Shown: positions 16,619 through 60,955 of the stretch, in pieces
Position numbering within the stretch: the stretch's first letter is position 1
Layout: each line of letters opens with the position of its first letter
Assembly: GCA_963677925.2 (NCBI GenBank)
Contig: CAXXYH010000003.1
Location: forward strand, 576,001 to 640,000
Length of the DNA stretch: 64,000 bases
Direction of reading: 5' to 3'
Source of the DNA: Spirochaetia bacterium
GTDB taxonomy: Bacteria > Spirochaetota > Spirochaetia > UBA9216
Notes under the pieces: generated by a model
Told to the model about the DNA's origin: nothing
The model's input: the letters and a program-made list of their open reading frames with translations, nothing else
The model's database searches: none
Made by a program: the position numbers and the translations under genes

Positions 16619-18028
16619 TTACACTCTTTTTGTCCATCTCGGCCCCTGCGGGGTATCTTTTATGATTATACCCATAGAAAGCAGTTTATCCCGTGCTTCA
16701 TCAGCTTTCTGCCAGTCTTTTGACTTTCGGGCATCCTCTCTCTGCTGTACAAGCGAAGCTTCTTCTTCGGTCAGCTCCGGAAGTGCAGCTTCCAGTTCAT
16801 CCAGCCTGAGACCGAGCACTCTGTCCATCTGCAGTACTGCGGTAAGCTTGTCCTGCTCACTTATACTGCTGTCCTTGAGAAGCTGCCACATTTCAGAAAG
16901 AGCACGAGGCGCATTCAAGTCGTTGGCAAGATGCCCGTCAAAATCGGTAAGATATTTTGCAGCAGATTCAGAAATTGAATTGACCTCTGCAGGCTCTGCA
17001 GCCGATTTAAGGGCTATTACTCTGTCATTCAGATTAAGCCTGGCATTCCTGGAAGCATCAAGTGATTCATAATTGAAAACCAGCTGGGAACGGTAATGGC
17101 CGCCCAGACAGAAATATCTGTAATCAAGCGGATCATAGCCGCTGTCAACAAGAGTCTGAAGCGTAATAAAATTACCGGAAGATTTAGCCATCTTCTGCTT
17201 ATCCATCAGCAGAAACTCACCATGCACCCAGTAGTTAACCCATTTTTTGCCGGTGGCTGCCTCTGACTGAGCTATTTCATTGGTATGATGAACCGGAATA
17301 TGATCAATTCCCCCGCAGTGTATATCAAAAGTTTCACCGAGGTATTTCATACTCATAGCCGAACATTCAATATGCCATCCAGGATAGCCGCTTCCCCAGG
17401 GTGAATCCCACTGCATCAGGTGATTCTCAAATTTTGAGTTGGTAAACCAGAGAACGAAGTCTCTGGGGTTTTTCTTGTTTGTATCAACCTCAATTCTAGC
17501 ACCGTCGCGAAGCTGCTGTCTGTCAAGCAGTGCAAGCTCGCCATAGGACGGGAACTTTGAAGTATCAAAGTAGACGTTTCCGCCGGAAACGTAGGTAAAA
17601 CCGTTTTTTTCCAGCCGCTTGATGAGGCCTATCATGTTGCCGATATGGTCTGTCGCCGCGCAAGATGTTGAGGGTTTCAGAATATTAAGCCGCTGAGTAT
17701 CGTTAAAAAAAGCCTCGGTATAGAAAGCGGCAATATCTTCAGGAGTTTTTCCGGTCTCCCTTGCACTCTTCTCCATCTTGTCTTCACCGTCATCAGCATC
17801 GCCGGTCAGGTGGCCTACATCGGTGATGTTCATGATATGATTTACCTTCAGTCCTGCGTATTCAAGCGCTCTTCTGAGTATATCTTCAAAGATATAGGTT
17901 CTAAGGTTACCTATGTGTGCGAAATTGTAAACGGTAGGGCCGCAGCAGTATAGTCCGACTTTTCCCTCTTTTACAGGTTTAAGTTCCTGGAGCTCACGGC
18001 CCAGTGTGTTATAAAGTCGAATCTGCAC
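16619..18028 (-). CDS. cysS: Cysteine--tRNA ligase (canonical)
   Basis: CGPTVY..AHIGN, GWHIECSAMS, HHTNE, KMAKS, and C-terminal anticodon domain (AR..KDW..AD..RD). GTG 18028 follows GGAGG; the track start is 18043. Confidence 0.97.
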   Translation of the reverse strand: MQIRLYNTLGRELQELKPVKEGKVGLYCCGPTVYNFAHIGNLRTYIFEDILRRALEYAGLKVNHIMNITDVGHLTGDADDGEDKMEKSARETGKTPEDIAAFYTEAFFNDTQRLNILKPSTSCAATDHIGNMIGLIKRLEKNGFTYVSGGNVYFDTSKFPSYGELALLDRQQLRDGARIEVDTNKKNPRDFVLWFTNSKFENHLMQWDSPWGSGYPGWHIECSAMSMKYLGETFDIHCGGIDHIPVHHTNEIAQSEAATGKKWVNYWVHGEFLLMDKQKMAKSSGNFITLQTLVDSGYDPLDYRYFCLGGHYRSQLVFNYESLDASRNARLNLNDRVIALKSAAEPAEVNSISESAAKYLTDFDGHLANDLNAPRALSEMWQLLKDSSISEQDKLTAVLQMDRVLGLRLDELEAALPELTEEEASLVQQREDARKSKDWQKADEARDKLLSMGIIIKDTPQGPRWTKRV

Positions 18029-18079
18029 AATTGCCTCCGGCATATGGTAATATCACGGAATTTCATTTAGAATACCGAT

Positions 18080-46338: not shown

Positions 46339-47654
46339 TCTGCAGCATCCTCCTCAAAAGACTTGCGGTATTTTGCAACTTCACGGTTAAGCCGTATCGC
46401 CTCAATAAACACAAATCCTCCGTCAAAGCTTCTTTTAATCATATTTTCAAACTTTCCGGCTACAGCTGGATAATCTGCAAAAACAGGGGCAGGTTCTTTA
46501 TGTGAGTTCAGGATTGTTCCGGCAATATCATACCACTGCTCCGGCAGCCCGGTCTCTTCCGGCTCTGTTGCCAGTACATTTTTCAATGCATCAGCTCTTA
46601 CAGGTAATTTCCCTGTTTGAGAAGAAAGATAAATCTGCTGAGCCTCTTCGGTAAGCCAGTGTATAAAGATCCACGAAGAAAGCTGCTCTCCTGCCTCACC
46701 TTTCATAATCGCCGCGGTCAAGTCGGCATCAAGCACAAAGCTGTTTCCCAGACGTCTTGACGGAACAGGAACCGCCGACCAGCCAAGTTCAGGATTAACA
46801 GATTTCAGCACAGTATCGTAGTATTTTAATGCCTCTATTCCTGCAAGAGAACAGAGCATAGTTCCTGAAATAAATGATGTTTGATTCTCATAAGAAGCAG
46901 CAGGATAGAGTACTGCGTTTCTTTTTATAAGACTTTTAACCAGACTGACAGCACCAATAACGGTTGGATTGTTAAAACTGTATGCAGAGCGATTTGGGCG
47001 AAGGATAGAACCTCCCCTGCCGTTTATCAGCGATACATATGACTGTGCATTAAGTTCTATTCCGAAAGCCGGGAACCCGGTTAATCGGCTGACTTTTTTA
47101 ACAAGCCGGCTGAAGAAAAACCATGTTCCGGGGAATTTTCCATATCCGGATTCTGCCAGAAGATCTTCATTAATAACAAGCACCCCTGCGTCCATTAGTA
47201 TCGGCACAGAACTGATCTTTCTGCTCCAGTCCCAGTAATCGGTCTGTCCCCTGACAACAGCATAAAAAGCCATTCTGCCGAACGGTTCTCCCCAGAGGGG
47301 GTGATAAAAAAAGGGCGAAAGCTCAGAGGTTTTTCCAGCTTTCAGCAGTTTTTCAGATTCAGAGGCTGAAGTCAGAATAATATTTGAATCTTCAGGGGCC
47401 GTATATACCGACCGTTTTTTGAGAATAACACGAATTCCGTATTCATTCTCATTGTTAAACCTTCCGACCAGCACATCTAAAGCATCCAGTTCGCTGGAAT
47501 AAAGATCATGCAGTACGGTTACTGCATCTGTGGAGGGTGATGATTCAGATAAAAAAGAATAATCTGGAAAAATTATTCCCGGGCTGCCGTTACATGAAAA
47601 TATAAACAGCGGGAGAATAAAAAGCAGTATCAGCTTTCTGAAGTAACATCGCAT
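46335..47654 (-). CDS. Extracellular solute-binding lipoprotein (SBP_bac_1/8-like)
   Basis: FIFS-C lipobox; FN..N..GIRV, P.......L.IN.DLL, P.TW, W.FI.WL, TG.LPVR. Confidence 0.85.
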   Translation of the reverse strand: MRCYFRKLILLFILPLFIFSCNGSPGIIFPDYSFLSESSPSTDAVTVLHDLYSSELDALDVLVGRFNNENEYGIRVILKKRSVYTAPEDSNIILTSASESEKLLKAGKTSELSPFFYHPLWGEPFGRMAFYAVVRGQTDYWDWSRKISSVPILMDAGVLVINEDLLAESGYGKFPGTWFFFSRLVKKVSRLTGFPAFGIELNAQSYVSLINGRGGSILRPNRSAYSFNNPTVIGAVSLVKSLIKRNAVLYPAASYENQTSFISGTMLCSLAGIEALKYYDTVLKSVNPELGWSAVPVPSRRLGNSFVLDADLTAAIMKGEAGEQLSSWIFIHWLTEEAQQIYLSSQTGKLPVRADALKNVLATEPEETGLPEQWYDIAGTILNSHKEPAPVFADYPAVAGKFENMIKRSFDGGFVFIEAIRLNREVAKYRKSFEEDAAE

Positions 47655-48091
47655 TCCAGGGCACCCGTAATATCCAGCAGTCCTGCGAAGGAAACAGGAA
47701 CACCTGATGAATCGCTGCCTGCGGCAGGATATACTGTTTCATATTCCGCCAGACTTACATCAATATAGACAGGAATATCTGTTTTACGAAACGGACAAAC
47801 TTCACCCGGTCTGAAACCAAGTATGTCATAAAGCTCCTGGGCATTTGCCATTCTTGTCTTTGTTCCTGTTAAAGTCTTCAGTTTTGCAGTAGAAATCTTC
47901 TTGTCTCCGGCACAGACGACTAAATAAAAGTTGCCGTCCTTGCCTTTGAATAATATTGATTTTGCTATCTGCCCTACTGTTACTTTCAGCATCGATGCAG
48001 CAGTTTCTGCTGTAGGTGTACTTCCTTCCTCGAATTCAATAGCCTTGAGTCCGTTTGCCGAAAGGAATTCTTTTATATCAGCTGGAATCAT
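47630..48091 (-). CDS. YbaK/EbsC family aminoacyl-tRNA deacylase
   Basis: T.TA..AA..L....GQIAKSILF, G...G.VCPF, VYPAAG. Confidence 0.9.
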   Translation of the reverse strand: MIPADIKEFLSANGLKAIEFEEGSTPTAETAASMLKVTVGQIAKSILFKGKDGNFYLVVCAGDKKISTAKLKTLTGTKTRMANAQELYDILGFRPGEVCPFRKTDIPVYIDVSLAEYETVYPAAGSDSSGVPVSFAGLLDITGALECDVTSES

Positions 48092-48196
48092 GGGTCAGAT
48101 TATAAATTAAAAACCCGACAGTTCAAAGCACCTTTTTATTGCGCAAAGCAGATATTCTGTTTATGCTGTAATTATAAATCTTTCAGAGGAGACCTT

Positions 48197-48475
48197 ATGC
48201 CTGAAAAGGGTGATATTTTCGATCTCGGTACTAATGAATATGTAGAATTCCTTGAAAATTTTGACGATCTTCATGATCTGGTTGGACATTATACAAGGGA
48301 TCCGGAAAACGCGCTGAAAGAAGTCAGAATACTCACACTGGTTCCTGTAAATTCTCTGGACGGCGAATACCGTAAAATCGGGCCCAATGAAAGAGAACGG
48401 CTGATGCATGTTTACAGGAATGCTTATCAGAAAAAATCTCCTGAATTCGAACGGCTGACAGGAACAGAGAAATAA
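48197..48475 (+). CDS. Small hypothetical protein
   Basis: 92 aa, SD GAGGAG, acidic N-terminus. Confidence 0.65.
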   Translation: MPEKGDIFDLGTNEYVEFLENFDDLHDLVGHYTRDPENALKEVRILTLVPVNSLDGEYRKIGPNERERLMHVYRNAYQKKSPEFERLTGTEK

Positions 48476-48498
48476 AACTACCCTAAATTCAGAAGATT

Positions 48499-49323
48499 CT
48501 ACATCAGAATTCCGCTGTAGTCTTTCCTGAATCCTTTGAGGATAGGAAGCTGTTCCCTGTAGCTGTAGACCTTATCGGTGTTTATTTCCCTGATTAAAAT
48601 TCCCTCATCCTCATCCAGCGAATCCATAACCTCACCCCATGGATCAGTTATTAGAGAATTCCCCCATGAGAGATATCCGGCATCGTGATTTCGGGCGGGA
48701 GCGCATCCAGCCATAAAAACCTGATTATCCACTGCCCGTATACGGAATGTCAGCTCCCAGTGTGCAGGCCCGGTAGTCATATTGAATGCTCCGGGAACGA
48801 TGATTGTGTGAGCACCCTGGACCGCCATTTCTCTGAACATTTCTGCAAACCTGATATCAAAGCAGATCGCCACCCCGATTTTACCGAACTCGGTATCAAT
48901 TACAGTTACCCTGTTACCGGGACTGAGGGTTTCGGATTCATGAAAACTGATTCCGCCCTCAATATCAACATCAAAAAGATGGAGTTTCCTGTGCCTTTCA
49001 ATAAGATCTCCATCCTTGTTGAAGCAGAAGCATGTGTTGAATATTTTTCCGTCGGAAGCTTTCTCAGGTATGGATCCGCCGATAAGCACTATTTTATAGT
49101 CGCTTGCAAGCCGTGATAATCTTTTTACCGTTTTACCGTTATCGGTTTCTGCATAATCTGGAAAACAGCTGTTATCATAAGGGCAATTAAACATTTCAGG
49201 CAGGACTACCACATCGGCTCCGGATTCTACGGCTGAGTCTATCATCTTCTCTGCATGTTCGAGATTCTTATCCTTGGAAGTTTCTACAAGCATCTGTATA
49301 AGTGCAAGGTTGAAAACAGACAT
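48499..49323 (-). CDS. Carbon-nitrogen hydrolase (Nit1/Nit2 omega-amidase-like)
   Basis: LPEMFN.PY, HRKLHLFD, ICFDIRF (E-K-C triad), AFNMTTGPAHW...RAVDNQ. Confidence 0.93.
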   Translation of the reverse strand: MSVFNLALIQMLVETSKDKNLEHAEKMIDSAVESGADVVVLPEMFNCPYDNSCFPDYAETDNGKTVKRLSRLASDYKIVLIGGSIPEKASDGKIFNTCFCFNKDGDLIERHRKLHLFDVDIEGGISFHESETLSPGNRVTVIDTEFGKIGVAICFDIRFAEMFREMAVQGAHTIIVPGAFNMTTGPAHWELTFRIRAVDNQVFMAGCAPARNHDAGYLSWGNSLITDPWGEVMDSLDEDEGILIREINTDKVYSYREQLPILKGFRKDYSGILM

Positions 49324-49332
49324 ATTTACTCC

Positions 49333-49947
49333 TTATTTGGAAGCTATGACGGTATAATCATTTGAAAGATATCCGCTTATTATTTTTACCGAACCGGCAA
49401 ATGATGATGCAAGCTTTTCTGCCTCGGAAGGTTCAAAGTAGAAATAATTCTCATCCCTGTCCGGAGATGCGGGGTCCAGCAGGTTGAAAACAAAGTATTT
49501 ATCTGCCAGCCCGGCCAGAACAGGAACTGCAGCCCTTAGAAAGGCTTCATTATTGCCGGCATTCAGATTAAAAATGCCGGATACAAAGGTAACATCAAAG
49601 GAGGATCTACCGATAACATCCTCTGACTTAAAACCCTCATCAAAAATATCAGCTGCTGCAAAAACAGTTTCCGGATGCAGTTCCGATGCCCTGTCAGTCA
49701 TTTTCTTCAGTATGTCAACACCGAAATAATCAGCATTGACATCAATGGATTTCAGCCAGTCCAGAAGGTCTCCGCAGCCGCAGCCTACATCGAGTATCGA
49801 TTTTCCGTTCAAATCAATATTATCAGTAAGAATACTGAACCTTGTTTTCTGAGCCTCAGGGCTCTCCCAGTCAAGGATTTTTGAGTTTTCATTGAATTTC
49901 TCGATTCTGGGTTCGTAATGTTTTTTAAGTATCTCAATTCTTCCCAT
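49333..49947 (-). CDS. Class I SAM-dependent methyltransferase
   Basis: W.S...Q..RF, SILDVGCGCGD, Y.GVDI, FD....SGIFN. Start moved to ATG 49947 (TATACT 7 nt upstream). Confidence 0.88.
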   Translation of the reverse strand: MGRIEILKKHYEPRIEKFNENSKILDWESPEAQKTRFSILTDNIDLNGKSILDVGCGCGDLLDWLKSIDVNADYFGVDILKKMTDRASELHPETVFAAADIFDEGFKSEDVIGRSSFDVTFVSGIFNLNAGNNEAFLRAAVPVLAGLADKYFVFNLLDPASPDRDENYFYFEPSEAEKLASSFAGSVKIISGYLSNDYTVIASK

Positions 49948-50081
49948 GACGATTAGTATAGCTCTTATATATTTTTTTTTCGAGTAATACAGCACGTAAT
50001 TATCCAAAGCTCTTAATCTTTCTTTTTTTATCGACTTTGAAGTTTTTTTTGTATATATTCATAGAAACGAGGTTATGAACA

Positions 50082-51317
50082 TTGCTTAAAATATATAACA
50101 CCATGGCCAGGGAGCTTGAGGAATTCAGGCCGAGGAATGGGAAAAACGTAAAAATATTTACATGCGGACCATCAATTTATCAGAAAGCTCATCTTGGCAA
50201 CTACAGAACCTTTCTTTATGAAGATCTGCTGGTAAGGTATCTCAAGTTCAGCGGTTACCATGTTGAACGGGCGATGAACCTTACTGATATTGAAGATAAA
50301 ACCATCTCGGAAGCTAAAAAGAAAGGTGTTGCAGTTCACGAGCTTACGGGCGACGTGCTTGCTATATTCAGAGACAGTCTGAACGGCTTTGATTTTGTTA
50401 TGCCGGAACACCTCATTCCAGCAACAGAAAGCATTGACTCCACAGTAAAAATTATTAAAACCCTTGTTGAGAAGGGAATTGCCTATGAACTTGACGGTGA
50501 TTATTTTTTCGATCCATTGAAAGTAGATAATTTCGGAAAACTTTTTCAGCTTGATATGAAACGCTGGCCTAAAGAGAAAAGGCGTTTCCGTCGTGATACC
50601 TATAACGGCAATAGATGGAACCTTGGTGATTTCATCCTGTGGCATGCAGACGGAGAAGAATACGGACCTGTCTGGGACACAGAAATAGGAAAAGGGCGTC
50701 CGTCCTGGAATATTCAGGATCCGGCCATTGTAGTAATGAGTCTTGGAGATCAGGTAGATATAAACTGCGGAGGTATTGATAATATTTACCGCCACCACGA
50801 TTACAATATAGCAGTAATGGAGGGATATTCCGGTAAAGACTATGCAAACTACTACATGCACGGCGAACACCTGGTAGTTGACGGAATTTCCATGTCCAAG
50901 AGCCGGGGCAATATCGTTTACCCTGAAGATCTTGTAAAAAAGGGTCACTCCTGGAAAGAGATCCGTTTTTTCCTCACCTACCGGCATTACCGGAAGAAGC
51001 TGAATTATACCGAAGAGCATTTTAATAAGACGGTTAAAATCCTGCATGATTTCAGGAACTCAATCGACTCGGTTAATGGCAGAGGAAAAAAAGACAGCAC
51101 TGCAGCAGGAGAACTGATAGATAATATCAATCCCGCCTTTTCAGAACAGCTTGATAAAGATCTTTCACTGGGCAAGGGTTTTGATGCTGTATACACCATT
51201 GTTAAGAAGCTTGAGAAAATATCAAAGGCAGAGGCTTTGTCTGAAAATCAGTTAAAAAGCCTTAAATCTGAACTGAAAAAAATTGACAATGTACTTAATG
51301 TAATCTACCCTACCTGA
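50082..51317 (+). CDS. Non-canonical cysteinyl-tRNA synthetase paralogue lacking the C-terminal anticodon domain
   Basis: CGPSIY..AHLGN, DFILW, GRPSWNIQD, HHDYN, SMSKS. 411 aa, ending after the helical bundle. TTG start after GAGGT. Confidence 0.9.
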   Translation: MLKIYNTMARELEEFRPRNGKNVKIFTCGPSIYQKAHLGNYRTFLYEDLLVRYLKFSGYHVERAMNLTDIEDKTISEAKKKGVAVHELTGDVLAIFRDSLNGFDFVMPEHLIPATESIDSTVKIIKTLVEKGIAYELDGDYFFDPLKVDNFGKLFQLDMKRWPKEKRRFRRDTYNGNRWNLGDFILWHADGEEYGPVWDTEIGKGRPSWNIQDPAIVVMSLGDQVDINCGGIDNIYRHHDYNIAVMEGYSGKDYANYYMHGEHLVVDGISMSKSRGNIVYPEDLVKKGHSWKEIRFFLTYRHYRKKLNYTEEHFNKTVKILHDFRNSIDSVNGRGKKDSTAAGELIDNINPAFSEQLDKDLSLGKGFDAVYTIVKKLEKISKAEALSENQLKSLKSELKKIDNVLNVIYPT

Positions 51318-51351
51318 TATACAGAAATATGAATGAAGTAAAGGAGTTAGA

Positions 51352-51717
51352 ATGAATCTTAGCTATAAAAACATCATCTCTTATGTATGGGCAAGAGATC
51401 CTGAAAAAACTATTAATTTTTATACTGCAATTTTAGGTTTCAAAAAAGCATTTGAATCTGACGGATGGACTGAACTTGCGGTTCCGGGAACAACCAACAC
51501 CTACCTTGCAGTTAACAAGTGGAGCAAGGAAGGAACCTACCCGGTCAACGAGTTTCTGACACTCGGTATAGAAGACCTAGATGCATTCAAGGCTCACCTT
51601 GTTGCCGAAGAAGTTACACTTTACGGTGATATAGTGGATTTCCCCGAGCAGGATATGCGGATGCTTAAGTTTTATGATCCTGACAAGAATGTACTGACAG
51701 TATCTGAGGTAAAGTAA
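51352..51717 (+). CDS. VOC (glyoxalase/bleomycin-resistance fold) protein
   Basis: D......FY..ILGF, W.EL, F.DPD.N; SD AAGGAG. Confidence 0.88.
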   Translation: MNLSYKNIISYVWARDPEKTINFYTAILGFKKAFESDGWTELAVPGTTNTYLAVNKWSKEGTYPVNEFLTLGIEDLDAFKAHLVAEEVTLYGDIVDFPEQDMRMLKFYDPDKNVLTVSEVK

Positions 51718-51743
51718 CAACTGAAACTGTTTTTATTAAATAG

Positions 51744-51772
51744 AAAGCTGCCTTTTATCAGGCAGCTTTTTT
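51744..51772 (+). terminator. Rho-independent terminator (probably bidirectional)
   Basis: Perfect 10-bp stem AAAGCTGCCT/AGGCAGCTTT, 6-nt loop, T run. Confidence 0.85.
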
Positions 51773-51809
51773 CTTGCCAGGACAAAGTAGTGTTTGCTGG
51801 TTTGGGTAC
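51746..51809. repeat. 64-bp direct repeat, copy 1 (left flank of the surface-protein cassette)
   Basis: 53/64 ungapped identity to 56019-56082 by hand alignment, with a perfect 21-bp core ATCAGGCAGCTTTTTTCTTGC. Confidence 0.9.
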
Positions 51810-51820
51810 TGTAGAAGGTA

Positions 51821-53368
51821 TTAAAGCCCGTATTTACAAAGTCTCAGTTTTTCCAGTGAACCTCCAAGCAGCAGGATCTCATCTTCCAGAAGAAAAATTG
51901 CATCGATATCCGGATTACTAAAGCCGTCATCCCAGGGAAAAACAAGTCCTGTCCCGCCGAAAGTTTTGTCCAAATCTCCGTCAGGGGTGTAGCGGAAAAG
52001 ACCGCTTGTTTTATAATAAGCGTTAGATGTGCCAACAATGTAGTTGCCCGCATCATCCGTAATTAGCGCTGATAGGGAAAATCTGTAATCGTCTAAAATT
52101 TCTTCAACAATACCATTGCTGCCGAAGCTTGTATCGAAAACTCCAGCAGCAGTAAATCTTGCAAGAAAAATATCTTCATCAGTATTTTCATCAGCATGGA
52201 TAGTTCCACCCACCGTAATCGAACCGTCATCATGAAGCAACAGAGATACAGGACCGTAATAAAAGGTCTCATTGCCTTCAATTACGGCATATCCTGATGA
52301 ATCTGTTCCGAAGTCTGAATCAAGACTGCCATCGGTGTTGAACCTTGCAAGGATCAAATCCTTACCGGAATCACTTGAACGTACACCTGAACCAAGAGCG
52401 AGGATCTTACCGTCAGCCTGCTCGCCGAGCTTATAACCTGCGGTGCTTGTATAATCAGCATTACTGAAATATGCAGTCCCATCGCTGCCGAAACTGGAAT
52501 CTGTTCCGCCGTCTTCTTCACGGATGTTGATATATAAACGGTCCATCTCATTATAGTTTCTGGTTCCGATTGCTGCAAAACTTCCGGAAGCAAGAATTTC
52601 CAAATCTTCTATCGATATTGCATAAACAAGAGGCATGATTCCGTCACCGTTGAATGTTGCGTCCAGGTTTCCATCGGCGTCGTAGCGATATCCGACTGTT
52701 ACATCTGTAGGCGAAAGATCGCGAATTCCGCCGGCCAGTATTCTACCGTCAGCATAAACATCAAAACAACGGAGTTCTTCGGCATTGACAGAATCAGGGT
52801 AATAGGCGATTCCATCGCCCCCCCCGAAGCTTGTATCGGGTTCACCAGAAAGCAGAAGCCTGGTAACGATAAAATCAGTGTCATCCTCAGACCCCACTAA
52901 AATACTTGCTGAATCATATCTTACTGCATCATAAACCATCGAATAGGTGATACCAATCTCATCATTTATATCAACAACCACTACACCGTCTTCCCCATAC
53001 TCAGGGTCGATAGTACCGCATTGACTGACTTTCACCTCACACTCTTCCTGATAGTAGGAATCCTGACTGGATGTAGCGGTTATCACAGCAGTGCCTTCTG
53101 ACAGCGCTGTGACTGTAGTCTCTGTACCTGTATCAGCGACAGAGACTACCGAACTGTCAGAGCTTCTCCAGGTTACGCTGAAAGCATCGTCTCCGTCAAA
53201 AATTTTAACCGTAAGCTCACGCTCTTCACCCCTGAAAAGCTCCAGAGACGTATTGGAAAGCGACAGTCCCGTCACGGGATTAGACTCGCAGGAGGAAAGA
53301 AGTAGTACAAAAACAAAACTGAAACTAAAAAGATAAAATAGCGTCTTTCGAATGTTATACAATTTCAT
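51821..53368 (-). CDS. Lipoprotein with Ig-like (Big_2) domain and delta-60 (DUF5122-like) beta-propeller repeats
   Basis: LLSS-C lipobox; VTWRSSD.SVVSV...A...GTAVITATS; repeated R....G..D.SFG..G. Confidence 0.85.
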   Translation of the reverse strand: MKLYNIRKTLFYLFSFSFVFVLLLSSCESNPVTGLSLSNTSLELFRGEERELTVKIFDGDDAFSVTWRSSDSSVVSVADTGTETTVTALSEGTAVITATSSQDSYYQEECEVKVSQCGTIDPEYGEDGVVVVDINDEIGITYSMVYDAVRYDSASILVGSEDDTDFIVTRLLLSGEPDTSFGGGDGIAYYPDSVNAEELRCFDVYADGRILAGGIRDLSPTDVTVGYRYDADGNLDATFNGDGIMPLVYAISIEDLEILASGSFAAIGTRNYNEMDRLYINIREEDGGTDSSFGSDGTAYFSNADYTSTAGYKLGEQADGKILALGSGVRSSDSGKDLILARFNTDGSLDSDFGTDSSGYAVIEGNETFYYGPVSLLLHDDGSITVGGTIHADENTDEDIFLARFTAAGVFDTSFGSNGIVEEILDDYRFSLSALITDDAGNYIVGTSNAYYKTSGLFRYTPDGDLDKTFGGTGLVFPWDDGFSNPDIDAIFLLEDEILLLGGSLEKLRLCKYGL

Positions 53369-53382
53369 ACTAAGCTCCTCAA

Positions 53383-54423
53383 TTAGGGGGTGTATTTAAA
53401 CAGATACCCCGAAGAACTTCCCGGTAAGAACCCGTCACCGAATCCTGTCCACTGCCTTAAAAAATATGCATCCCCATCACATAAAACGAAAGAGCTGTTA
53501 CCGTAATCCATGAAATATCCCTCAGGGAAAGATGCAAGCTCTGTCCATTCTGTATCTCCGGGAGTCCATGAATACAGCTTATTCTCATCACCTAGAACAT
53601 AACCGGTTCCGTCTATAGAGAATCCTTTTTCCACTACTCCTGCAGATTCCGGCAGGGAAGGAATTGACACCCAGCTTCCATCGGCAGGATCAAATTCGCT
53701 GAACTCACGAACCGCATTAGTATCCACTCCATCATCGTCGGGGTCCTCGGAACTGTCAACAGGATATTTTCCACCGCCGGAATAGATCTTGTCTCCGATT
53801 GTAAAAAAAGCAGGGTTTCTATAACCGGAATAATCCGAATCGGACATTTGTCTTGTCACTACAGGATCTGCTGTATCGAAATACCAGCTGTAATAGACAT
53901 AATCATAACTATCAGAGGTTCCGAACAAAATGCAGCTGTCTGTCCACGCACAATCAAGACCACTGGCGGGTATATTACTGAAATCAAGTGTTGTAAGTGT
54001 TAAGGTGCCTGCATCAACATCATATTCCCAGACAGTATCATGATTCCAGCCTTCAACAACATAAACCTTTCCATCATGTTCATAAGTTGTACATGAGTCA
54101 TCATCCCTGGTTTCATGACCGCTTATTTCTATCTCTGTCCAGCTTTCGGATTCAGGATTATAAGTCCACATATCAAGCAATGGATTATCAGTGTCTTCAT
54201 GATGTCCAAGACCGTAGTAAACCAGCCCGTCACGTTCAAATAGAACTGCTTCTGCTCTTTTATCTCCAGGGAAGGTTGTCTTTCGCTCCCAGAAATCATG
54301 ATCAAGAGCATTGTCCCTGTCTGCTGCAAAGATTGCCGAATCAGCTGCTGATGGATCAAAGAGATCACAGGCAGTAAAAACAATAAGAGCCAGAATTATT
54401 AAACCTATCATTTTATTCTTCAT
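53383..54423 (-). CDS. Kelch-like beta-propeller lipoprotein
   Basis: VFTA-C lipobox; repeats FPG..R, Y.GLG, D.W.Y.P....W, F.IG.K.Y.GGG, EFDP....W. Confidence 0.8.
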   Translation of the reverse strand: MKNKMIGLIILALIVFTACDLFDPSAADSAIFAADRDNALDHDFWERKTTFPGDKRAEAVLFERDGLVYYGLGHHEDTDNPLLDMWTYNPESESWTEIEISGHETRDDDSCTTYEHDGKVYVVEGWNHDTVWEYDVDAGTLTLTTLDFSNIPASGLDCAWTDSCILFGTSDSYDYVYYSWYFDTADPVVTRQMSDSDYSGYRNPAFFTIGDKIYSGGGKYPVDSSEDPDDDGVDTNAVREFSEFDPADGSWVSIPSLPESAGVVEKGFSIDGTGYVLGDENKLYSWTPGDTEWTELASFPEGYFMDYGNSSFVLCDGDAYFLRQWTGFGDGFLPGSSSGYLFKYTP

Positions 54424-55945
54424 TCAAGGCCCCCTGCAGTTTTTCAATCTTTCTTTCGATACTGGCTTCCCGGCCTGCCAGCAATACTGATATGAGTGTA
54501 AAGCCTGCGGCCGGCGCTCCTATATACAATGACGTATCACGAAACTCACGCCAGATAAAAATATTGTCTTCTTCAGCGGTTATTGCTGCACCCAGACGGT
54601 CCACTTCCGCCTGAGTAGTCGCAGCATCATACAGCGGTGCAAGCTCTGTCAGCTCATCTGTTGCCGACCATATCATATACTCTCCGGCAGCCGCGACTGA
54701 AGCACTCACGGCAGTTATCGAGCCGAAGATCCAGCTGCATCCCTTCCAGAATGCGGTAGATTTTTTTGCTCCTTCAAGCTTGAGACTAAGCTCAGCTATT
54801 TCTTCGCGTATTAAATATTCTTCTGTATATTCAAGTTCCTGTTCAATTCTTAATGTTTCATCACGGACTATCTCAACATCGATCACCGTATCTTTATAAT
54901 CCGGATGCGATACAGTTACTTTATAACTGCCTGCTGCCAAAGTGTTAGTAGAGTTGGCTTTTAGCTGAATAAGCTCACCATCCTTATTCACAGCTTTGGC
55001 AGCTGCGCCTTCAGTACCAAGTATTTCAAGATACCCGCCCGGTATAAGCTCAATAGTCAGGCGTGTTGTTACACCTGACTCTATTTCAACATCATCGATA
55101 TAGAACCATCCATCACCCTCGACATGAATTTGTTTGGTTCCTGCAGGAACAGCTTTGTTGAGCCCCTTCTTTGCGGAAAAATCTCCGATGGTTATTTCAT
55201 ATCCTGCGGCTTCTTTCGGAATAACCGTAAGAATTACGTTTCCAGTAAGCAGTTTGATATCAGCTTCAATTTCTACAATATCTTTGGATAGAATTGTTAT
55301 CTCTTTTGTAAAAACATTATCTTCTGACTTTACCTCTACCAGATGGCTGCCAAACACTACATTTTCAATAAGCAGTGGAGTAATCCCAACACTCTCACCG
55401 TCCAGAAATACTTCAAGTTCAAGATCATCGGGGGCAGTAACATAAATTTCACCGACGACTTCGAATGAAACTCCGGTTTCCGGATTGTAATCCAGCCCCG
55501 CCAGCTTGTATGAAGCCGAAAAAACCTGTTCCTGCATTTCATCAAGTGAGCTGAATGTTACAACTTCGGCTCCTACGGTTCTGCTTGTTCCTACATCAAT
55601 CATGCGGACAGCGAGGTTATATGTACTTCCAACAGCCGACAATTCTCCAAGCACAATAATTTCTGCGGCAAGAAGTTTACCGACTTCGATCGCACATGAA
55701 TCATCAGTACAGCCGGAAAGAGAAAAAGCCTGTGCTTCCAGAATCTCCTGCATGTCGTTGTAGCTTAAAACCGTGTACAGATCTGTTTTAAAAAGGGCTG
55801 TCTCTACAATACTCCGGCAGGCTGTGGCATCCGCTTCTGAAACACCGTTTGCAGTTATAGCTGTTACAGCAAGAAGCGGTTTACTCTGAGCATAAACACT
55901 CGCTGAACCTACTAATAAAAATAAACATATTATATATTTCCGCAT
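54413..55945 (-). CDS. Exported protein: CsgG/TolB-N-like domain, PEGA domains, C-terminal hydrophobic helices
   Basis: Signal peptide; ILEAQ.FSLSGCTD.SCAIEVGKLLAA..IV.G; V.LDG..VG.TPL.I..V..G.H.VEV; G.Y.VTVSHPDY. Confidence 0.8.
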   Translation of the reverse strand: MRKYIICLFLLVGSASVYAQSKPLLAVTAITANGVSEADATACRSIVETALFKTDLYTVLSYNDMQEILEAQAFSLSGCTDDSCAIEVGKLLAAEIIVLGELSAVGSTYNLAVRMIDVGTSRTVGAEVVTFSSLDEMQEQVFSASYKLAGLDYNPETGVSFEVVGEIYVTAPDDLELEVFLDGESVGITPLLIENVVFGSHLVEVKSEDNVFTKEITILSKDIVEIEADIKLLTGNVILTVIPKEAAGYEITIGDFSAKKGLNKAVPAGTKQIHVEGDGWFYIDDVEIESGVTTRLTIELIPGGYLEILGTEGAAAKAVNKDGELIQLKANSTNTLAAGSYKVTVSHPDYKDTVIDVEIVRDETLRIEQELEYTEEYLIREEIAELSLKLEGAKKSTAFWKGCSWIFGSITAVSASVAAAGEYMIWSATDELTELAPLYDAATTQAEVDRLGAAITAEEDNIFIWREFRDTSLYIGAPAAGFTLISVLLAGREASIERKIEKLQGALNEE

Positions 55946-55979: not shown

Positions 55980-56018
55980 GGAATAAAAAATGTTACGGCC
56001 TGGTGGGACTTTTACAAC

Positions 56019-56082
56019 AGCAGCCTCTAATCAGGCAGCTTTTTTCTTGCAAGAACGAAATAATGTTTACTTGTTTGGATAC
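56019..56082. repeat. 64-bp direct repeat, copy 2 (right flank of the cassette)
   Basis: Matches 51746-51809; the hairpin is imperfect in this copy. Confidence 0.9.
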
Positions 56083-56140
56083 GGCCTTCAATAAAACAAT
56101 CATCAATATGCCTTATCTGTTTGATTTCAAAGTTTGTAAA
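56027..56140 (-). pseudogene. 3'-end remnant of a gene, resembling a class I methyltransferase C-terminus
   Basis: Open minus frame FTNFEIKQIRHIDDCFIEGRIQTSKHYFVLARKKLPD*. Silent divergence against repeat copy 1 supports past coding function. Family call is by recollection only. Confidence 0.55.
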
Positions 56141-56179
56141 TGTCTTGCGATTTTCAGAGTTTACTGCATAATAGCTTGT

Positions 56180-56950
56180 ATGCATAATAACCAAACACCG
56201 ATCATAAAATTATTACTAATACTGTTTCTCTTTACATCTTTTTCAATTTTCGCAGATGATAAAAGCACGAATACAATAACAGTAGATTCATTTGACGGCC
56301 CCGGTTCTGGCGGATATTACGACGGCAGCAGAATAATCTGGAATGCAGTCGGCAGCAGATATGCTACCCGCTTTGAATCGGAAAACCCTGGCGCTCCTGA
56401 AAACTTTCCCAGACTGGCTTATGCAGACAGGAACGCAGCGCCTGATATTTTCGGAACTCTGCCGGAACCATCTGAAAACTCGGCAGTGCTTGGTATCTGG
56501 TCCAGATTCGATCGGCCCGGCTATAATTCATATGAAATACTTCCCGGAGAAACCAGCGAAGGAGAATGGATTTACCGTCCGATTGAACTGGTTCAAAAAG
56601 TAAAAAGTATAAGCTTTTTAGCCTGGGGATCAGATTTGGATTATGAGATTGAGATTCATATAATGGATACGAACGGCTTTGTGTATCAGCTTCGGCCTTT
56701 CAGGACGGATACTGCAAACGGGAAACATATTGAATCAAGCTTAAAGTATACAGGATGGGCAGAGTTCTCAGCTAAAATACCGGATTATATAATCCAGCGA
56801 GACGTTGCAGTATCAAACCGGTTCCCTCTGTATATAAGTAAATTTGTTGTCCGGACTATGCCCGAAGAAAAAATTTCTGAATGCCGGCTTTATCTGGACA
56901 GGCTTGAAGTGATTACCATCCCGGCAGAGACTCTCGACGGGCTCTTTTAG
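56180..56950 (+). CDS. FlaA-family (flagellar filament sheath) protein, divergent paralogue
   Basis: Signal peptide; LG....FDR.GYN..EI.P, VKSIS...WG....Y.IE....D..G, L.Y.GW......IP..I.Q, Y.D.L.V. Start moved to ATG 56180. Confidence 0.82.
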   Translation: MHNNQTPIIKLLLILFLFTSFSIFADDKSTNTITVDSFDGPGSGGYYDGSRIIWNAVGSRYATRFESENPGAPENFPRLAYADRNAAPDIFGTLPEPSENSAVLGIWSRFDRPGYNSYEILPGETSEGEWIYRPIELVQKVKSISFLAWGSDLDYEIEIHIMDTNGFVYQLRPFRTDTANGKHIESSLKYTGWAEFSAKIPDYIIQRDVAVSNRFPLYISKFVVRTMPEEKISECRLYLDRLEVITIPAETLDGLF

Positions 56951-59776: not shown

Positions 59777-60955
59777 TTAAATATATTCTTTGCTGCTGGT
59801 GGAGGAAATTCCCCGAAGTCTGGCAACAGCTTTTTTAATAATATCGATAGTATAGTCAATCTCTTCCTCAGTTGTGAATCTCGAAAGACTGAACCTCATA
59901 CCGGTGTGGGCAAGGTCCTGCGCAATATTCATGGCAACGAAGGTTGGGTTTGACTCAAGTGATTCTGAAGCGCATGCGCTTCCCGTAGATGCTGCAATAC
60001 CGTTCTGATTAAGATCCCAGAGAAAGGCTTCGCCTTCAATGCCCCTGAAGCTGGCAAGGATGGTATTAGGTGTACGGATGTCCCTGCTGCCGATAACCTC
60101 TGAATCTTCTATTGAAAGAATTGCATCTTCAAGCTTGTCCCTTAGACGTCTGACTTGCTTATTCTCAAATTCAAGATTCTGTGTGGCAAGTTCCATTGCA
60201 TAACCCATTCCAATAAAAGACTGAACGTTGATTGTTCCCGCTCTTAAGCCGGCCATCTGCTCACCGCCGTGAAAAAGCGGAACAAGCGGAGCGCCTTCAC
60301 GTACATACAAGCCGCCGATACCCTTGGGGCCGTGAAACTTGTGTGCACTGAAGGTAATATAATCAGCCTTTACCTTCTGCATGTCTACAGGAAGCTTGCC
60401 GATTGCCTGTACCGCATCAAGGTGAAGAGGTACGCCGTTTTCGCGGCAAATCTCACCATAAGCTTCAACCGGGTTAATTATTCCAGTCTCATTATTTGCC
60501 CATATTATCGATACAAGGGCAGTGTTATCGGGATCGATCGTGTCTTTGAGAACCTGGGGATCTACAATTCCTTCGGTATTTACCGGAAGCCATTTAATTT
60601 CCATACCGAGCTTGTGAAGAAATTCACAGGTTTCTGATACCGCCGGGTGTTCAATGCTGCTGGTAATAATCTGTTTCTTTCCTGAATTAAGCATGTAGTT
60701 GAAATATGCTGTCTTCAAAACCGTATTATTACCCTCTGTGGCACAGCTGGTGATAAGTATATCATCATCATCGCCTGCATTGATTCCGTCATAAAGTCTG
60801 TCCAGAGCTATTTTCATATAAGGATGGACTTCTGTACCGAAACTGTGCAGTGAATTCGGATTACCGTACATCTGACAGGCAAAGGGCTCCATCGCATCCT
60901 TGACTGCCGGGTCTACTATAGTTGTAGCATTATTATCTAGATAAATTCTTTCCAT
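59777..60955 (-). CDS. nifS: Cysteine desulfurase, NifS/IscS group I
   Basis: YLDNNATT, GNPNSLH, ANNETG, SAHKFHGPKG, STGSAC. Confidence 0.95.
   Translation of the reverse strand: MERIYLDNNATTIVDPAVKDAMEPFACQMYGNPNSLHSFGTEVHPYMKIALDRLYDGINAGDDDDILITSCATEGNNTVLKTAYFNYMLNSGKKQIITSSIEHPAVSETCEFLHKLGMEIKWLPVNTEGIVDPQVLKDTIDPDNTALVSIIWANNETGIINPVEAYGEICRENGVPLHLDAVQAIGKLPVDMQKVKADYITFSAHKFHGPKGIGGLYVREGAPLVPLFHGGEQMAGLRAGTINVQSFIGMGYAMELATQNLEFENKQVRRLRDKLEDAILSIEDSEVIGSRDIRTPNTILASFRGIEGEAFLWDLNQNGIAASTGSACASESLESNPTFVAMNIAQDLAHTGMRFSLSRFTTEEEIDYTIDIIKKAVARLRGISSTSSKEYI

Follow-up and report, generated by a model that had tools for sequence, protein, structure and literature searches.

The 64,000-nucleotide stretch of Spirochaetia bacterium DNA analysed here (hereafter the window; positions 576,001 to 640,000 of contig CAXXYH010000003.1) carries, at 50082..51317 on the plus strand, a gene for a paralogue of cysteinyl-tRNA synthetase (CysRS) in which half of the canonical zinc site is replaced. 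To judge by its sequence, this paralogue belongs to a distinct and conserved CysRS-derived family under purifying selection, which probably performs a job not yet worked out beside the housekeeping CysRS. It was tentatively read as an active, probably tRNA-facing ligase that uses a remodelled Cys/Asp/His site to activate cysteine or a closely similar compound. Among the known aminoacyl-tRNA synthetase paralogues it is an uncharacterised variant: neither a paper on a CysRS relative with this WNIQD/HHDYN-type pocket nor a published function was found in open-access PMC and bioRxiv, in line with an original prediction that had been made from the letters of the window.

The open reading frame (ORF) encodes 411 amino acids (aa) and starts with TTG, about 10 nucleotides downstream of a GAGG. 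Its N-terminus (MLKIYNTM) resembled that of the homologues (MLKLYNTM), and the G+C content of the gene (41.3 %) was nearly equal to that of the genome (42.7 %). The original prediction had pointed out a canonical cysS in the same window, which was found there on the minus strand with its end at 18043, not at 18028. Paralogue and window cysS were identical at 127 of 404 positions (31 %; BLASTP, E 9e-65). Translation and alignment confirmed the ORF and every motif pair quoted beforehand, which are, canonical form first, CGPT/CGPS, HIGN/HLGN, PGWHIEC/PSWNIQD, DIHCGG/DINCGG, HHTNE/HHDYN and KMAKS/SMSKS. Conservation was followed in the 120 best homologues of a word-indexed search, not selected by motif (at least 120 homologues exist; 49-97 % identity, 350-446 aa). 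The features of the two genes are as follows.

50082..51317 (+): CysRS-like paralogue with Rossmann catalytic fold, CP domain, SC-fold and helical bundle, without the C-terminal alpha/beta anticodon domain
16619..18043 (-): canonical cysS for comparison, 474 aa, with CysS_C (PF23493 present); TIGR00435 488.2 bits (cut-off 340)
50163..50174 (+): CGPS (C28 G29 P30 S31), C28 being a kept metal ligand; in 119 of 120 homologues, the remaining one having a gap
within 50163..50174 (+): G29 carbonyl and S31 hydroxyl, equivalents of G44 and T46 of MshC, which hold the alpha-amino group
50190..50201 (+): HIGH-type ATP motif HLGN; HIGN, HLGN or HVGN in 119 of 120
50283..50288 (+): T68-D69, alpha-amino contact (T68 in E. 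coli, T83 in MshC); TD in 120 of 120
50559..50645 (+): clade-specific basic CP-domain element KRWPKEKRRFRRDTYNGNRWNLGDFILWH, the part modelled with lowest confidence
50706..50720 (+): WNIQD in place of WHIEC; W kept, H206 to N, E208 to Q, zinc ligand C209 to D213
50757..50774 (+): DINCGG (canonical DIHxGG), in 107 of 120
50790..50807 (+): RHHDYN in place of PHHxNE; H238 kept, E238 to N242, with R237, D240 and Y241 new; RHHDYN in 116 of 120
50889..50903 (+): KMSKS-type loop SMSKS; catalytic second lysine K273 in 120 of 120, first lysine in 17 of 120 only

A HMMER alignment to E. coli CysRS (1li5) equated C28, W209, N210, Q212, D213, H238 and N242 of the paralogue with C28, W205, H206, E208, C209, H234 and E238 of the E. 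coli enzyme. Two of the four canonical zinc ligands (C28, C209, H234 and E238) were thus kept, as C28 and H238, and two were replaced, by D213 and N242, exactly as had been predicted. Also as predicted, the ATP motifs were kept in the forms HLGN and SMSKS, with K273. With these motifs and the alpha-amino contacts in place, the adenylation machinery is intact at the level of sequence.

The class I (C) catalytic domain PF01406 was recognised in the paralogue at residues 16-317 (238.1 bits, E 1.8e-70), as it was in the canonical cysS. Pfam placed CysS_C (PF23493) at residues 422-470 of the canonical protein and did not find it in the paralogue, which aligned through the helical bundle, that is to about residue 401 of the window cysS and to residue 393 of 1li5. 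The anticodon domain had been said to be absent; this holds for the alpha/beta domain CysS_C, whereas the helical bundle is retained. On TIGR03447, the model of the mycothiol enzyme MshC, the paralogue reached 209.9 bits (cut-off 485.1) and, because the canonical cysS scored 214.2 on the same model, it is no nearer to MshC than an ordinary CysRS is. Searches of the PDB with phmmer gave 204.7 bits to CysRS and 129 to MshC. The paralogue thus fell short of the curated cut-off of the cysS model as well as of that of the MshC model, which fits the non-canonical paralogue that had been proposed.

An AlphaFold model of the paralogue computed with 27 family members reached a predicted local distance difference test (pLDDT) score of 91.4 and a predicted template modelling (pTM) score of 0.90. 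Its weakest region was the basic CP loop (residue blocks 151-190, pLDDT 57-87), and its C-terminus consisted of helices 363-383 and 388-405. The highest Foldseek matches were CysRS structures, namely 8qhp at a template modelling (TM) score of 0.89 and 1u0b, 1li5 and 3tqo at 0.83-0.86; MshC came next at about 0.8, with 22-24 % identity in structure alignments, and MetRS was far behind. HMMER found no member of the clade among the solved structures of the PDB.

Among the 120 homologues W209, D213, H238, H239, D240, Y241 and K273 were invariant, while N210, Q212 and R237 were present in 119 and N242 in 117. The original prediction had allowed for unconserved substitutions in a decaying duplicate; the pocket residues proved essentially invariant, and decay is rejected. 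A second table set the clade against 101 canonical CysRSs, the clade set having been picked by the motifs HHDY and W[NH]xQD and the comparison being circular for those columns. Residues shared by both sets were C28, G29, P30, H37, G39, N40, T68, D69, D72, K73, W209, G230, G231 and D233, together with H238, H239, H260 and M271-S274; these near-invariant positions belong to the ATP-binding site and the amino-acid backbone site. Invariants specific to the clade concentrated in the side-chain and metal pocket (N210, Q212, D213, P214, R237, D240, Y241, N242) and in the CP domain, where W162-P163 and G176 are insertions and F169, T173, R178, W179, G182, I185 and H188 complete the set. Mean pairwise identity over residues 209-258 was 0.73 in the clade and 0.64 in canonical CysRS.

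The homology search and tree called for in the original prediction returned a distinct clade. An exhaustive HMMER search of 50 %-identity representatives gave 336-411 bits for clade members (P0121-P0125), while the first full-length canonical CysRS followed at 291 bits and 38 % identity. In a quick maximum-likelihood tree of 66 rows, all 21 clade rows lay beyond one branch with full support (Shimodaira-Hasegawa-like approximate likelihood ratio test, SH-aLRT, 100), whose stem measured 1.08 substitutions per site. MshC was compared outside this tree, through the hidden Markov model and PDB scores given above. The window cysS stood far from the clade, among canonical sequences, and the paralogue is therefore not a recent duplicate of the host cysS. 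Names in use for the family are inconsistent, being "class I tRNA ligase family protein" at NCBI and "cysteinyl-tRNA synthetase" at JGI, which matters for genome-based metabolic inference.

Other departures from the canonical zinc site were seen among 150 representatives. Asp at the C209 position also occurred beyond the clade, as WHIED combined with HHECE or HHEAE in some proteins of otherwise canonical length (P0151, P0223 and P0252 with HHECE; P0249, P0254, P0266 and P0212 with HHEAE or HHDAE). In some of these WHIED proteins a Cys stood two positions ahead of E238, suggestive of a shifted ligand; others were without a second Cys. Two short proteins were differently rewired, P0156 (405 aa, Micrarchaeota) displaying PAWNVQC and NHHENT and P0253 (407 aa) displaying PGWHIQD and PHHSAQ; they may represent further unexplored types of paralogue. 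Fused forms of full-length CysRS were also encountered: P0131 (768 aa) and P0190 (783 aa) had an N-terminal PALP domain (cysteine-synthase type, dependent on pyridoxal phosphate, PLP) joined to a CysRS with CysS_C, and P0235 (818 aa) had a C-terminal family-2 glycosyltransferase domain.

A pattern scan of one genome per species yielded at least 596 stretches, and tblastn confirmed at least 534 of them. The best 80 loci, which were also found through motif patterns, were distributed over Spirochaetota (including Leptospirales), Syntrophobacteraceae, Desulfobacteraceae, Desulfarculales, Acidobacteriota and Nitrospirae, and over metagenome-assembled genomes (MAGs) labelled Thermoplasmata, Bathyarchaeia and Methanocellales. 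Members from bacteria and from archaeal-labelled MAGs were about 50 % identical. Among 401 evenly sampled Spirochaetota genomes, 23 carriers were counted, that of the window included, at 593 bits or more; the next score, 407, belonged to a canonical CysRS. None of 78 other genomes of the window's class carried the paralogue, while 55 of 77 genomes at least 90 % complete did so in the order containing Syntrophobacter (that of the genome of locus L036). No frame disruptions were found in the matches from the 23 and the 55 genomes.

A further CysRS-type gene was present in all 23 Spirochaetota carriers, in 54 of the 55 from the Syntrophobacter order and in all three carriers from other phyla; the sole exception, genome G416, displayed one CysRS-type match. 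Because 80 of 81 carriers hold a canonical-type CysRS as well, the paralogue is accessory to the housekeeping enzyme and not its replacement. Many genomes of the Syntrophobacter order displayed three CysRS-family matches, namely the canonical one, the clade member and a match of about 200 bits in a frame of about 800 aa, which may be a PALP-CysRS fusion; third matches in the order of genome G401 lay in open frames of 774-889 aa. Locus L060, on a 5.16 Mb chromosome labelled Thermoplasmata archaeon, had a clade member at 49 % identity together with a canonical-type CysRS; the genome seems large for Thermoplasmata, which could reflect gene transfer or a problem of labelling or binning. No copies of the paralogue were found in plasmid and phage collections, which held canonical-type cysS only, at 33 % identity or less. 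Canonical-type cysS named cysteine--tRNA ligase was unexpectedly common on plasmids (625 records, 501 of them from Klebsiella) and was unrelated to the clade.

The clade was found to be markedly basic. Its median isoelectric point (pI) was 8.9 against 5.8 for canonical CysRS, and the net charge of the aligned region +9.0 against -7.6; the largest gain was that of the CP domain (+6.1 against -0.6). New conserved basic residues (K35 beside the HIGH motif, R237 before HH, R275 after KMSKS, R170 and R171 in the CP loop) surround the entrance of the active site. The nearest proteins outside the clade were about 405-427 aa long and kept WHIEC or WSIEC and HHENE-type motifs. Two of them, P0139 (Ca. 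ainarchaeum) and P0145 (Micrarchaeia), are DPANN proteins that bear the name cysteine--tRNA ligase at NCBI. These short DPANN CysRSs share with the clade a length of about 410 aa, the missing C-terminal domain, CGPS and an extended, strongly basic CP loop ending in DxY...GDFxLW; the short relatives had a pI of 9.7-10.3 and net charges of +26 to +47, compared with a pI of 5.3-6.0 for full-length forms. They adjoined the clade in the tree, the sister position of P0138 being weakly supported (69). In contrast to the clade their WHIEC/WSIEC and HHENE zinc motifs are intact, and a long, fully supported stem lies between.

The short basic architecture reads as ancestral to the clade's branch and compatible with tRNA binding; it gives no sign of tRNA independence. 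Since several unrelated short forms also lack the alpha/beta domain, its loss is not diagnostic. The suggestion of a non-tRNA acceptor, which the original prediction had drawn from the missing domain, is accordingly weak, the bundle being retained, the short DPANN CysRSs being built alike and the basic charge being common to both.

CysRS is the standard example of a synthetase that discriminates its amino acid through a zinc-thiolate bond, without editing. On the reading preferred here, the paralogue would form the aminoacyl-adenylate of cysteine or a close analogue, with the side chain held under the invariant Trp209 by a Cys/Asp/His metal site or by a metal-free polar equivalent. The amino acid would then be passed to an RNA acceptor, in the simplest version to a tRNA whose acceptor end is gripped by the extended basic CP loop, and the short DPANN CysRSs without the same domain presumably work alike. 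An L-alpha-amino acid very probably still occupies its canonical position. Because Trp209, C28 and H238 are invariant, a small and probably thiol-bearing side chain would still be bound; nothing points to homocysteine or another particular new substrate, as had been put forward, and the same three residues favour, if anything, a cysteine-like side chain. In MshC, according to the available text of PMC9736012, zinc is held by three protein ligands (C43, C231 and H256) and the substrate thiol, while T46, T83 and the carbonyl of G44 hold the alpha-amino group. The equivalents in the paralogue are C28, D213 and H238 for the ligands and S31, T68 and G29 for the alpha-amino contacts, so that a three-ligand Cys/Asp/His site is possible.

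Two versions of this activity may be envisaged. One would be a CysRS in which thiol recognition is independent of the Cys2-His-Glu zinc, useful in anoxic, sulfidic and zinc-scarce habitats; the other would have a changed amino-acid or tRNA specificity. The carriers (sulfate reducers, syntrophs, relatives of methanogens, spirochaetes) are, we presume, for the most part anaerobes from places in which sulfide keeps zinc scarce, which makes the zinc-independent, cysteine-charging version attractive. As the gene travels alone between phyla, its second substrate should already be present in every recipient cell. An RNA or tRNA acceptor, a modification variant included, was given roughly even chances and favoured over a small-molecule acceptor, which seems unlikely. 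It would likewise be an unlikely, if far-reaching, case that a synthetase lineage had abandoned the Cys2-His-Glu zinc and still aminoacylates RNA, whether with a non-cysteine or non-canonical amino acid or through zinc-independent recognition of cysteine. For the non-cysteine case, one could think of a system for conditional recoding, or for tRNA-dependent biosynthesis, that gene transfer has carried through anaerobic bacteria and archaea.

The surroundings of the paralogue in the window included the following elements.

50031..50059 (+): promoter-like site TCGACT-17-TATATT, a consensus match only, in the 140-nucleotide divergent intergenic region
51352..51717 (+): VOC/glyoxalase-family gene, 121 aa, 34 nucleotides 3' of the paralogue and co-oriented; PF00903 E 4.2e-9
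51744..51769 (no strand assigned, T-run on the plus strand): GC-rich hairpin followed by a T-run, read from the sequence and scored on the minus strand
49333..50007 (-): class I methyltransferase dependent on S-adenosylmethionine, divergent from the paralogue; Pfam Methyltransf_25 and related families

The intergenic region held eight promoter consensus matches, compared with 4.9 expected. The VOC gene had a weak best match among the NCBIfam models (FosA12, 21.8 bits, cut-off 270) and occupied position +1 in 6 of the 74 loci compared. It is probably co-transcribed with the paralogue, in the window's sub-lineage only, and the hairpin is likely to be the terminator that closes this two-gene unit. 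The divergent methyltransferase was found at position -1 in 8 of the 74 loci, from three lineages; its true start is likely to be at 49941, judged from the starts of homologues.

For the comparison of neighbourhoods, ORFs within five genes on either side were clustered for 74 of 81 loci (in the other seven the target ORF was not recognised by the regular expression), which gave 695 neighbour ORFs from 29 lineages. No general operon partner emerged, no neighbour being common to more than eight of the 29 lineages. Recurrent neighbours were an ABC ATPase (eight lineages), sigma-54-type response regulators (six), a CNNM/DUF21-like gene (four lineages, 17 loci), a TrpF-like gene (four Syntrophobacterales loci), the methyltransferase (three lineages) and the VOC protein (six loci); in other loci the paralogue was followed by a TrpF-like gene or by a pair of ABC-2 exporter genes. 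The window and loci L002, L003 and L017, from Spirochaetia MAGs, had in common the order YbaK-like gene, 90-aa gene, CN-hydrolase, divergent methyltransferase, paralogue and VOC gene. In these three MAGs, cysE-, cysK- and NifU-like genes followed about 0.1-3.5 kb 3' of the pair on the minus strand; the window lacks this set and has lipoprotein genes there instead. SelB-like, CobW-like and carrier-protein-like genes, looked for by motif, numbered zero among the 695 neighbours.

On the far side of the methyltransferase, at 47630-49323 (-) and 48197-48475 (+), the window displayed a YbaK/ProX-type aminoacyl-tRNA editing-domain protein, with a sub-threshold match to Cys-tRNA(Pro) deacylase, a conserved 92-aa ORF without a family, and a CN-hydrolase whose best matches, all sub-threshold, were deaminated-glutathione amidases; this block was syntenic with L002 and L003. 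Downstream, a run of predicted surface proteins and lipoproteins occupied 51821-55945 (-), with Big_2 and DUF5122 beta-propeller, Kelch-repeat and PEGA/CsgG-like members, and was followed at 56003-56950 (+) by a FlaA flagellar outer-layer protein, as fits a spirochaete. A 392-aa PLP enzyme at 59777-60955 (-) matched the SepCysS model weakly and below threshold (37.6 bits against 365), and probably belongs to the common class V aminotransferases or cysteine desulfurases.

According to ARAGORN the genome has 46 tRNAs with a single tRNA-Cys(GCA), and no tRNA gene lies within the window. Neither BshC, proteobacterial-type GshA (PF04262), SepCysS nor SepRS was detected above cut-off in the genome, in which one GSH-S_ATP-like ATP-grasp match of uncertain meaning was seen. 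A role as class I analogue of SepRS, forming Sep-tRNA, was dropped, as no SepCysS or SepRS passed the cut-off in the genome, and so was a role in selenocysteine, as the genome has no tRNA-Sec. No Rfam family reached its gathering score in 11 loci, and the two sub-threshold matches within 47000-53000 of the window were at chance level. PADLOC gave no defence-system match for the paralogue, the only ESM Atlas clusters found were that of the family itself and others of CysRS/MshC, and no fusions of 721-2055 aa were found at E <= 1e-60, which is weak evidence.

Several observations weigh against a tRNA-facing, cysteine-activating ligase. The paralogue scored 301.6 bits on TIGR00435, short of the equivalog cut-off of 340. 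Two canonical lysines are lost in the clade, namely the one after LW (K188 to H) and, mostly, the first of KMSKS, and it is not obvious why a simple back-up CysRS should need these losses along with the invariants of the CP domain. The basic character of the DPANN proteins may have other causes, and the charge of the clade could serve for binding to an anionic small molecule or an acidic protein instead of RNA. Among 80 loci, tRNA genes were near the paralogue in two only (Gly-CCC and Pro-GGG), neither of them Cys nor opal, and ARAGORN found no tRNA-Sec, suppressor or unusual tRNA in the genome. The sporadic partners (VOC protein, ABC-2 exporter, TrpF-like gene) hint at small-molecule metabolism in some lineages, and MshC shows that an architecture of about 410 aa can be tRNA-independent. 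The amino acid, the metal and the acceptor, moreover, are putative.

The architecture of MshC leads to the rival that we regard as rather unlikely yet deserving most attention, a tRNA-independent ligase of the MshC kind that joins adenylated cysteine or another amino acid to a small-molecule amine or thiol, for example in a low-molecular-weight thiol or an anaerobe conjugate. Length, the missing alpha/beta domain, a TM score of about 0.8 and the patchy accessory distribution agree with it. Three protein zinc ligands suffice in MshC, so that the loss of E238 need not matter, and a phosphorylated acceptor could dock at the new basic residues around the opening of the active site. The VOC gene with its weak match to the FosA thiol transferase, the cysE-cysK-nifU-like genes of close relatives and the ABC-2 exporter or TrpF-like gene 3' in other lineages would suit such a pathway. 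However, the TIGR03447 score is no higher than that of canonical cysS, phmmer favours CysRS, and the basic charge and extended CP loop are common to short CysRSs that charge tRNA. No acceptor-pathway genes travel along, and the genome (99.63 % complete) contained neither BshC nor any PIG-L deacetylase (PF02585, MshB/BshB-type), a family matched in 7 of 14 genomes in a control.

By analogy with GluQRS, the paralogue might alternatively be a truncated synthetase that loads its activated amino acid onto a modified nucleoside or some other RNA site away from the 3' terminus. A stand-alone gene without conserved operon, the missing terminal anticodon domain, the basic protein, the intact adenylation motifs and the remodelled pocket would all be expected of it; it was nevertheless judged improbable, since neither a candidate target nor a modification gene that co-occurs with it came to light. 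GluQRS, furthermore, is not known to have the helical bundle that the paralogue retains. A dedicated synthetase of the CysRS* type, for a selC*-like opal-decoding tRNA-Cys, would share the missing anticodon domain and the altered CP domain, and the clade also occurs in Desulfobacteraceae and Syntrophobacterales. Such an enzyme implies an ordinary cysteine pocket, given that a canonical CysRS with the domain deletion and a CP1 change mimicked it (PMC5389517, as far as its available text goes); with no SelB-like GTPase among the 695 neighbours, no Cys or opal tRNA nearby, no tRNA-Sec or suppressor and no PTVS motif in the clade, it seems very improbable. It is equally hard to believe in a non-catalytic relic, a regulatory pseudo-enzyme or decaying duplicate. 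Two of four zinc ligands are indeed replaced and the score lies below the cysS cut-off, but the ATP motifs and the new pocket residues are invariant in 120 homologues from several phyla, the catalytic core is tighter than that of canonical CysRS, and the frames are undisrupted.

The tRNA-facing ligase proposed here would have consequences beyond the window. Synthetase paralogues with lost or changed tRNA charging have each opened new biology, as did MshC, GluQRS, the amino acid:carrier-protein ligases and CysRS*. A family of this size, strongly constrained and without assigned function, is a worthwhile biochemical target, and a relative that replaces half of the CysRS zinc site while keeping the rest offers a direct handle on altering thiol discrimination. 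A zinc-independent CysRS, if confirmed, would bear on metal economy in sulfidic habitats, and a new substrate or acceptor would add a reaction to the synthetase superfamily.

Compared with canonical CysRS (TIGR00435; 1LI5, 1U0B), the paralogue displayed the same fold, HIGH and KMSKS motifs, alpha-amino contacts, HYR of the SC-fold and helical bundle with DDL/F. It differed by six pocket substitutions (C209 to D, E238 to N, H206 to N, E208 to Q, P233 to R and N237 to Y), by the inserted basic CP loop, by a pI of about 9 instead of about 5.8 and by the absence of CysS_C. MshC (Cys:GlcN-Ins ligase of mycothiol; TIGR03447; 3C8Z, 8HFM) is likewise derived from CysRS, about 410 aa long, without the alpha/beta domain and provided with KMSKS; it sets the precedent of a tRNA-independent amide ligase. 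Unlike the paralogue, it is actinobacterial, has pathway partners and keeps the Cys-Cys-His zinc triad, in which the equivalent of Cys231 is Asp213 in the paralogue.

CysRS* of some Desulfobacterales was described by Mukai et al. 2017 (PMC5389517; review PMC9437257), in the text available, as a second cysS copy without the anticodon-binding domain and with an altered CP domain, encoded downstream of selC*/selB* and carrying a PTVS motif in CP1. The clade shares with it the missing anticodon domain, the altered CP domain and an occurrence in anaerobic Deltaproteobacteria, and is set apart by that published description: PTVS was present in no clade sequence and only in P0240 and P0248, which are full-length (494 and 495 aa). 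The truncated paralogues of anaerobes mentioned in the original prediction may be CysRS*, so far as the description allows this to be said, and in that case concern a different context. The CysS2 of Cupriavidus metallidurans, regulated by Zur, belongs to a Zur-controlled operon with a CobW-type chaperone (PMC10882993, available text). Compared by description only, it is similar as a second CysRS beside a housekeeping one and in the idea that metal supply drives the duplication of zinc enzymes; by the same description the clade differs, having no COG0523/CobW-like genes among its neighbours. GluQRS, finally, provided a functional analogy only, the paralogue being derived from CysRS and not from GluRS; a truncated GluRS paralogue is tabled as a precedent in the accessible part of PMC9437257.

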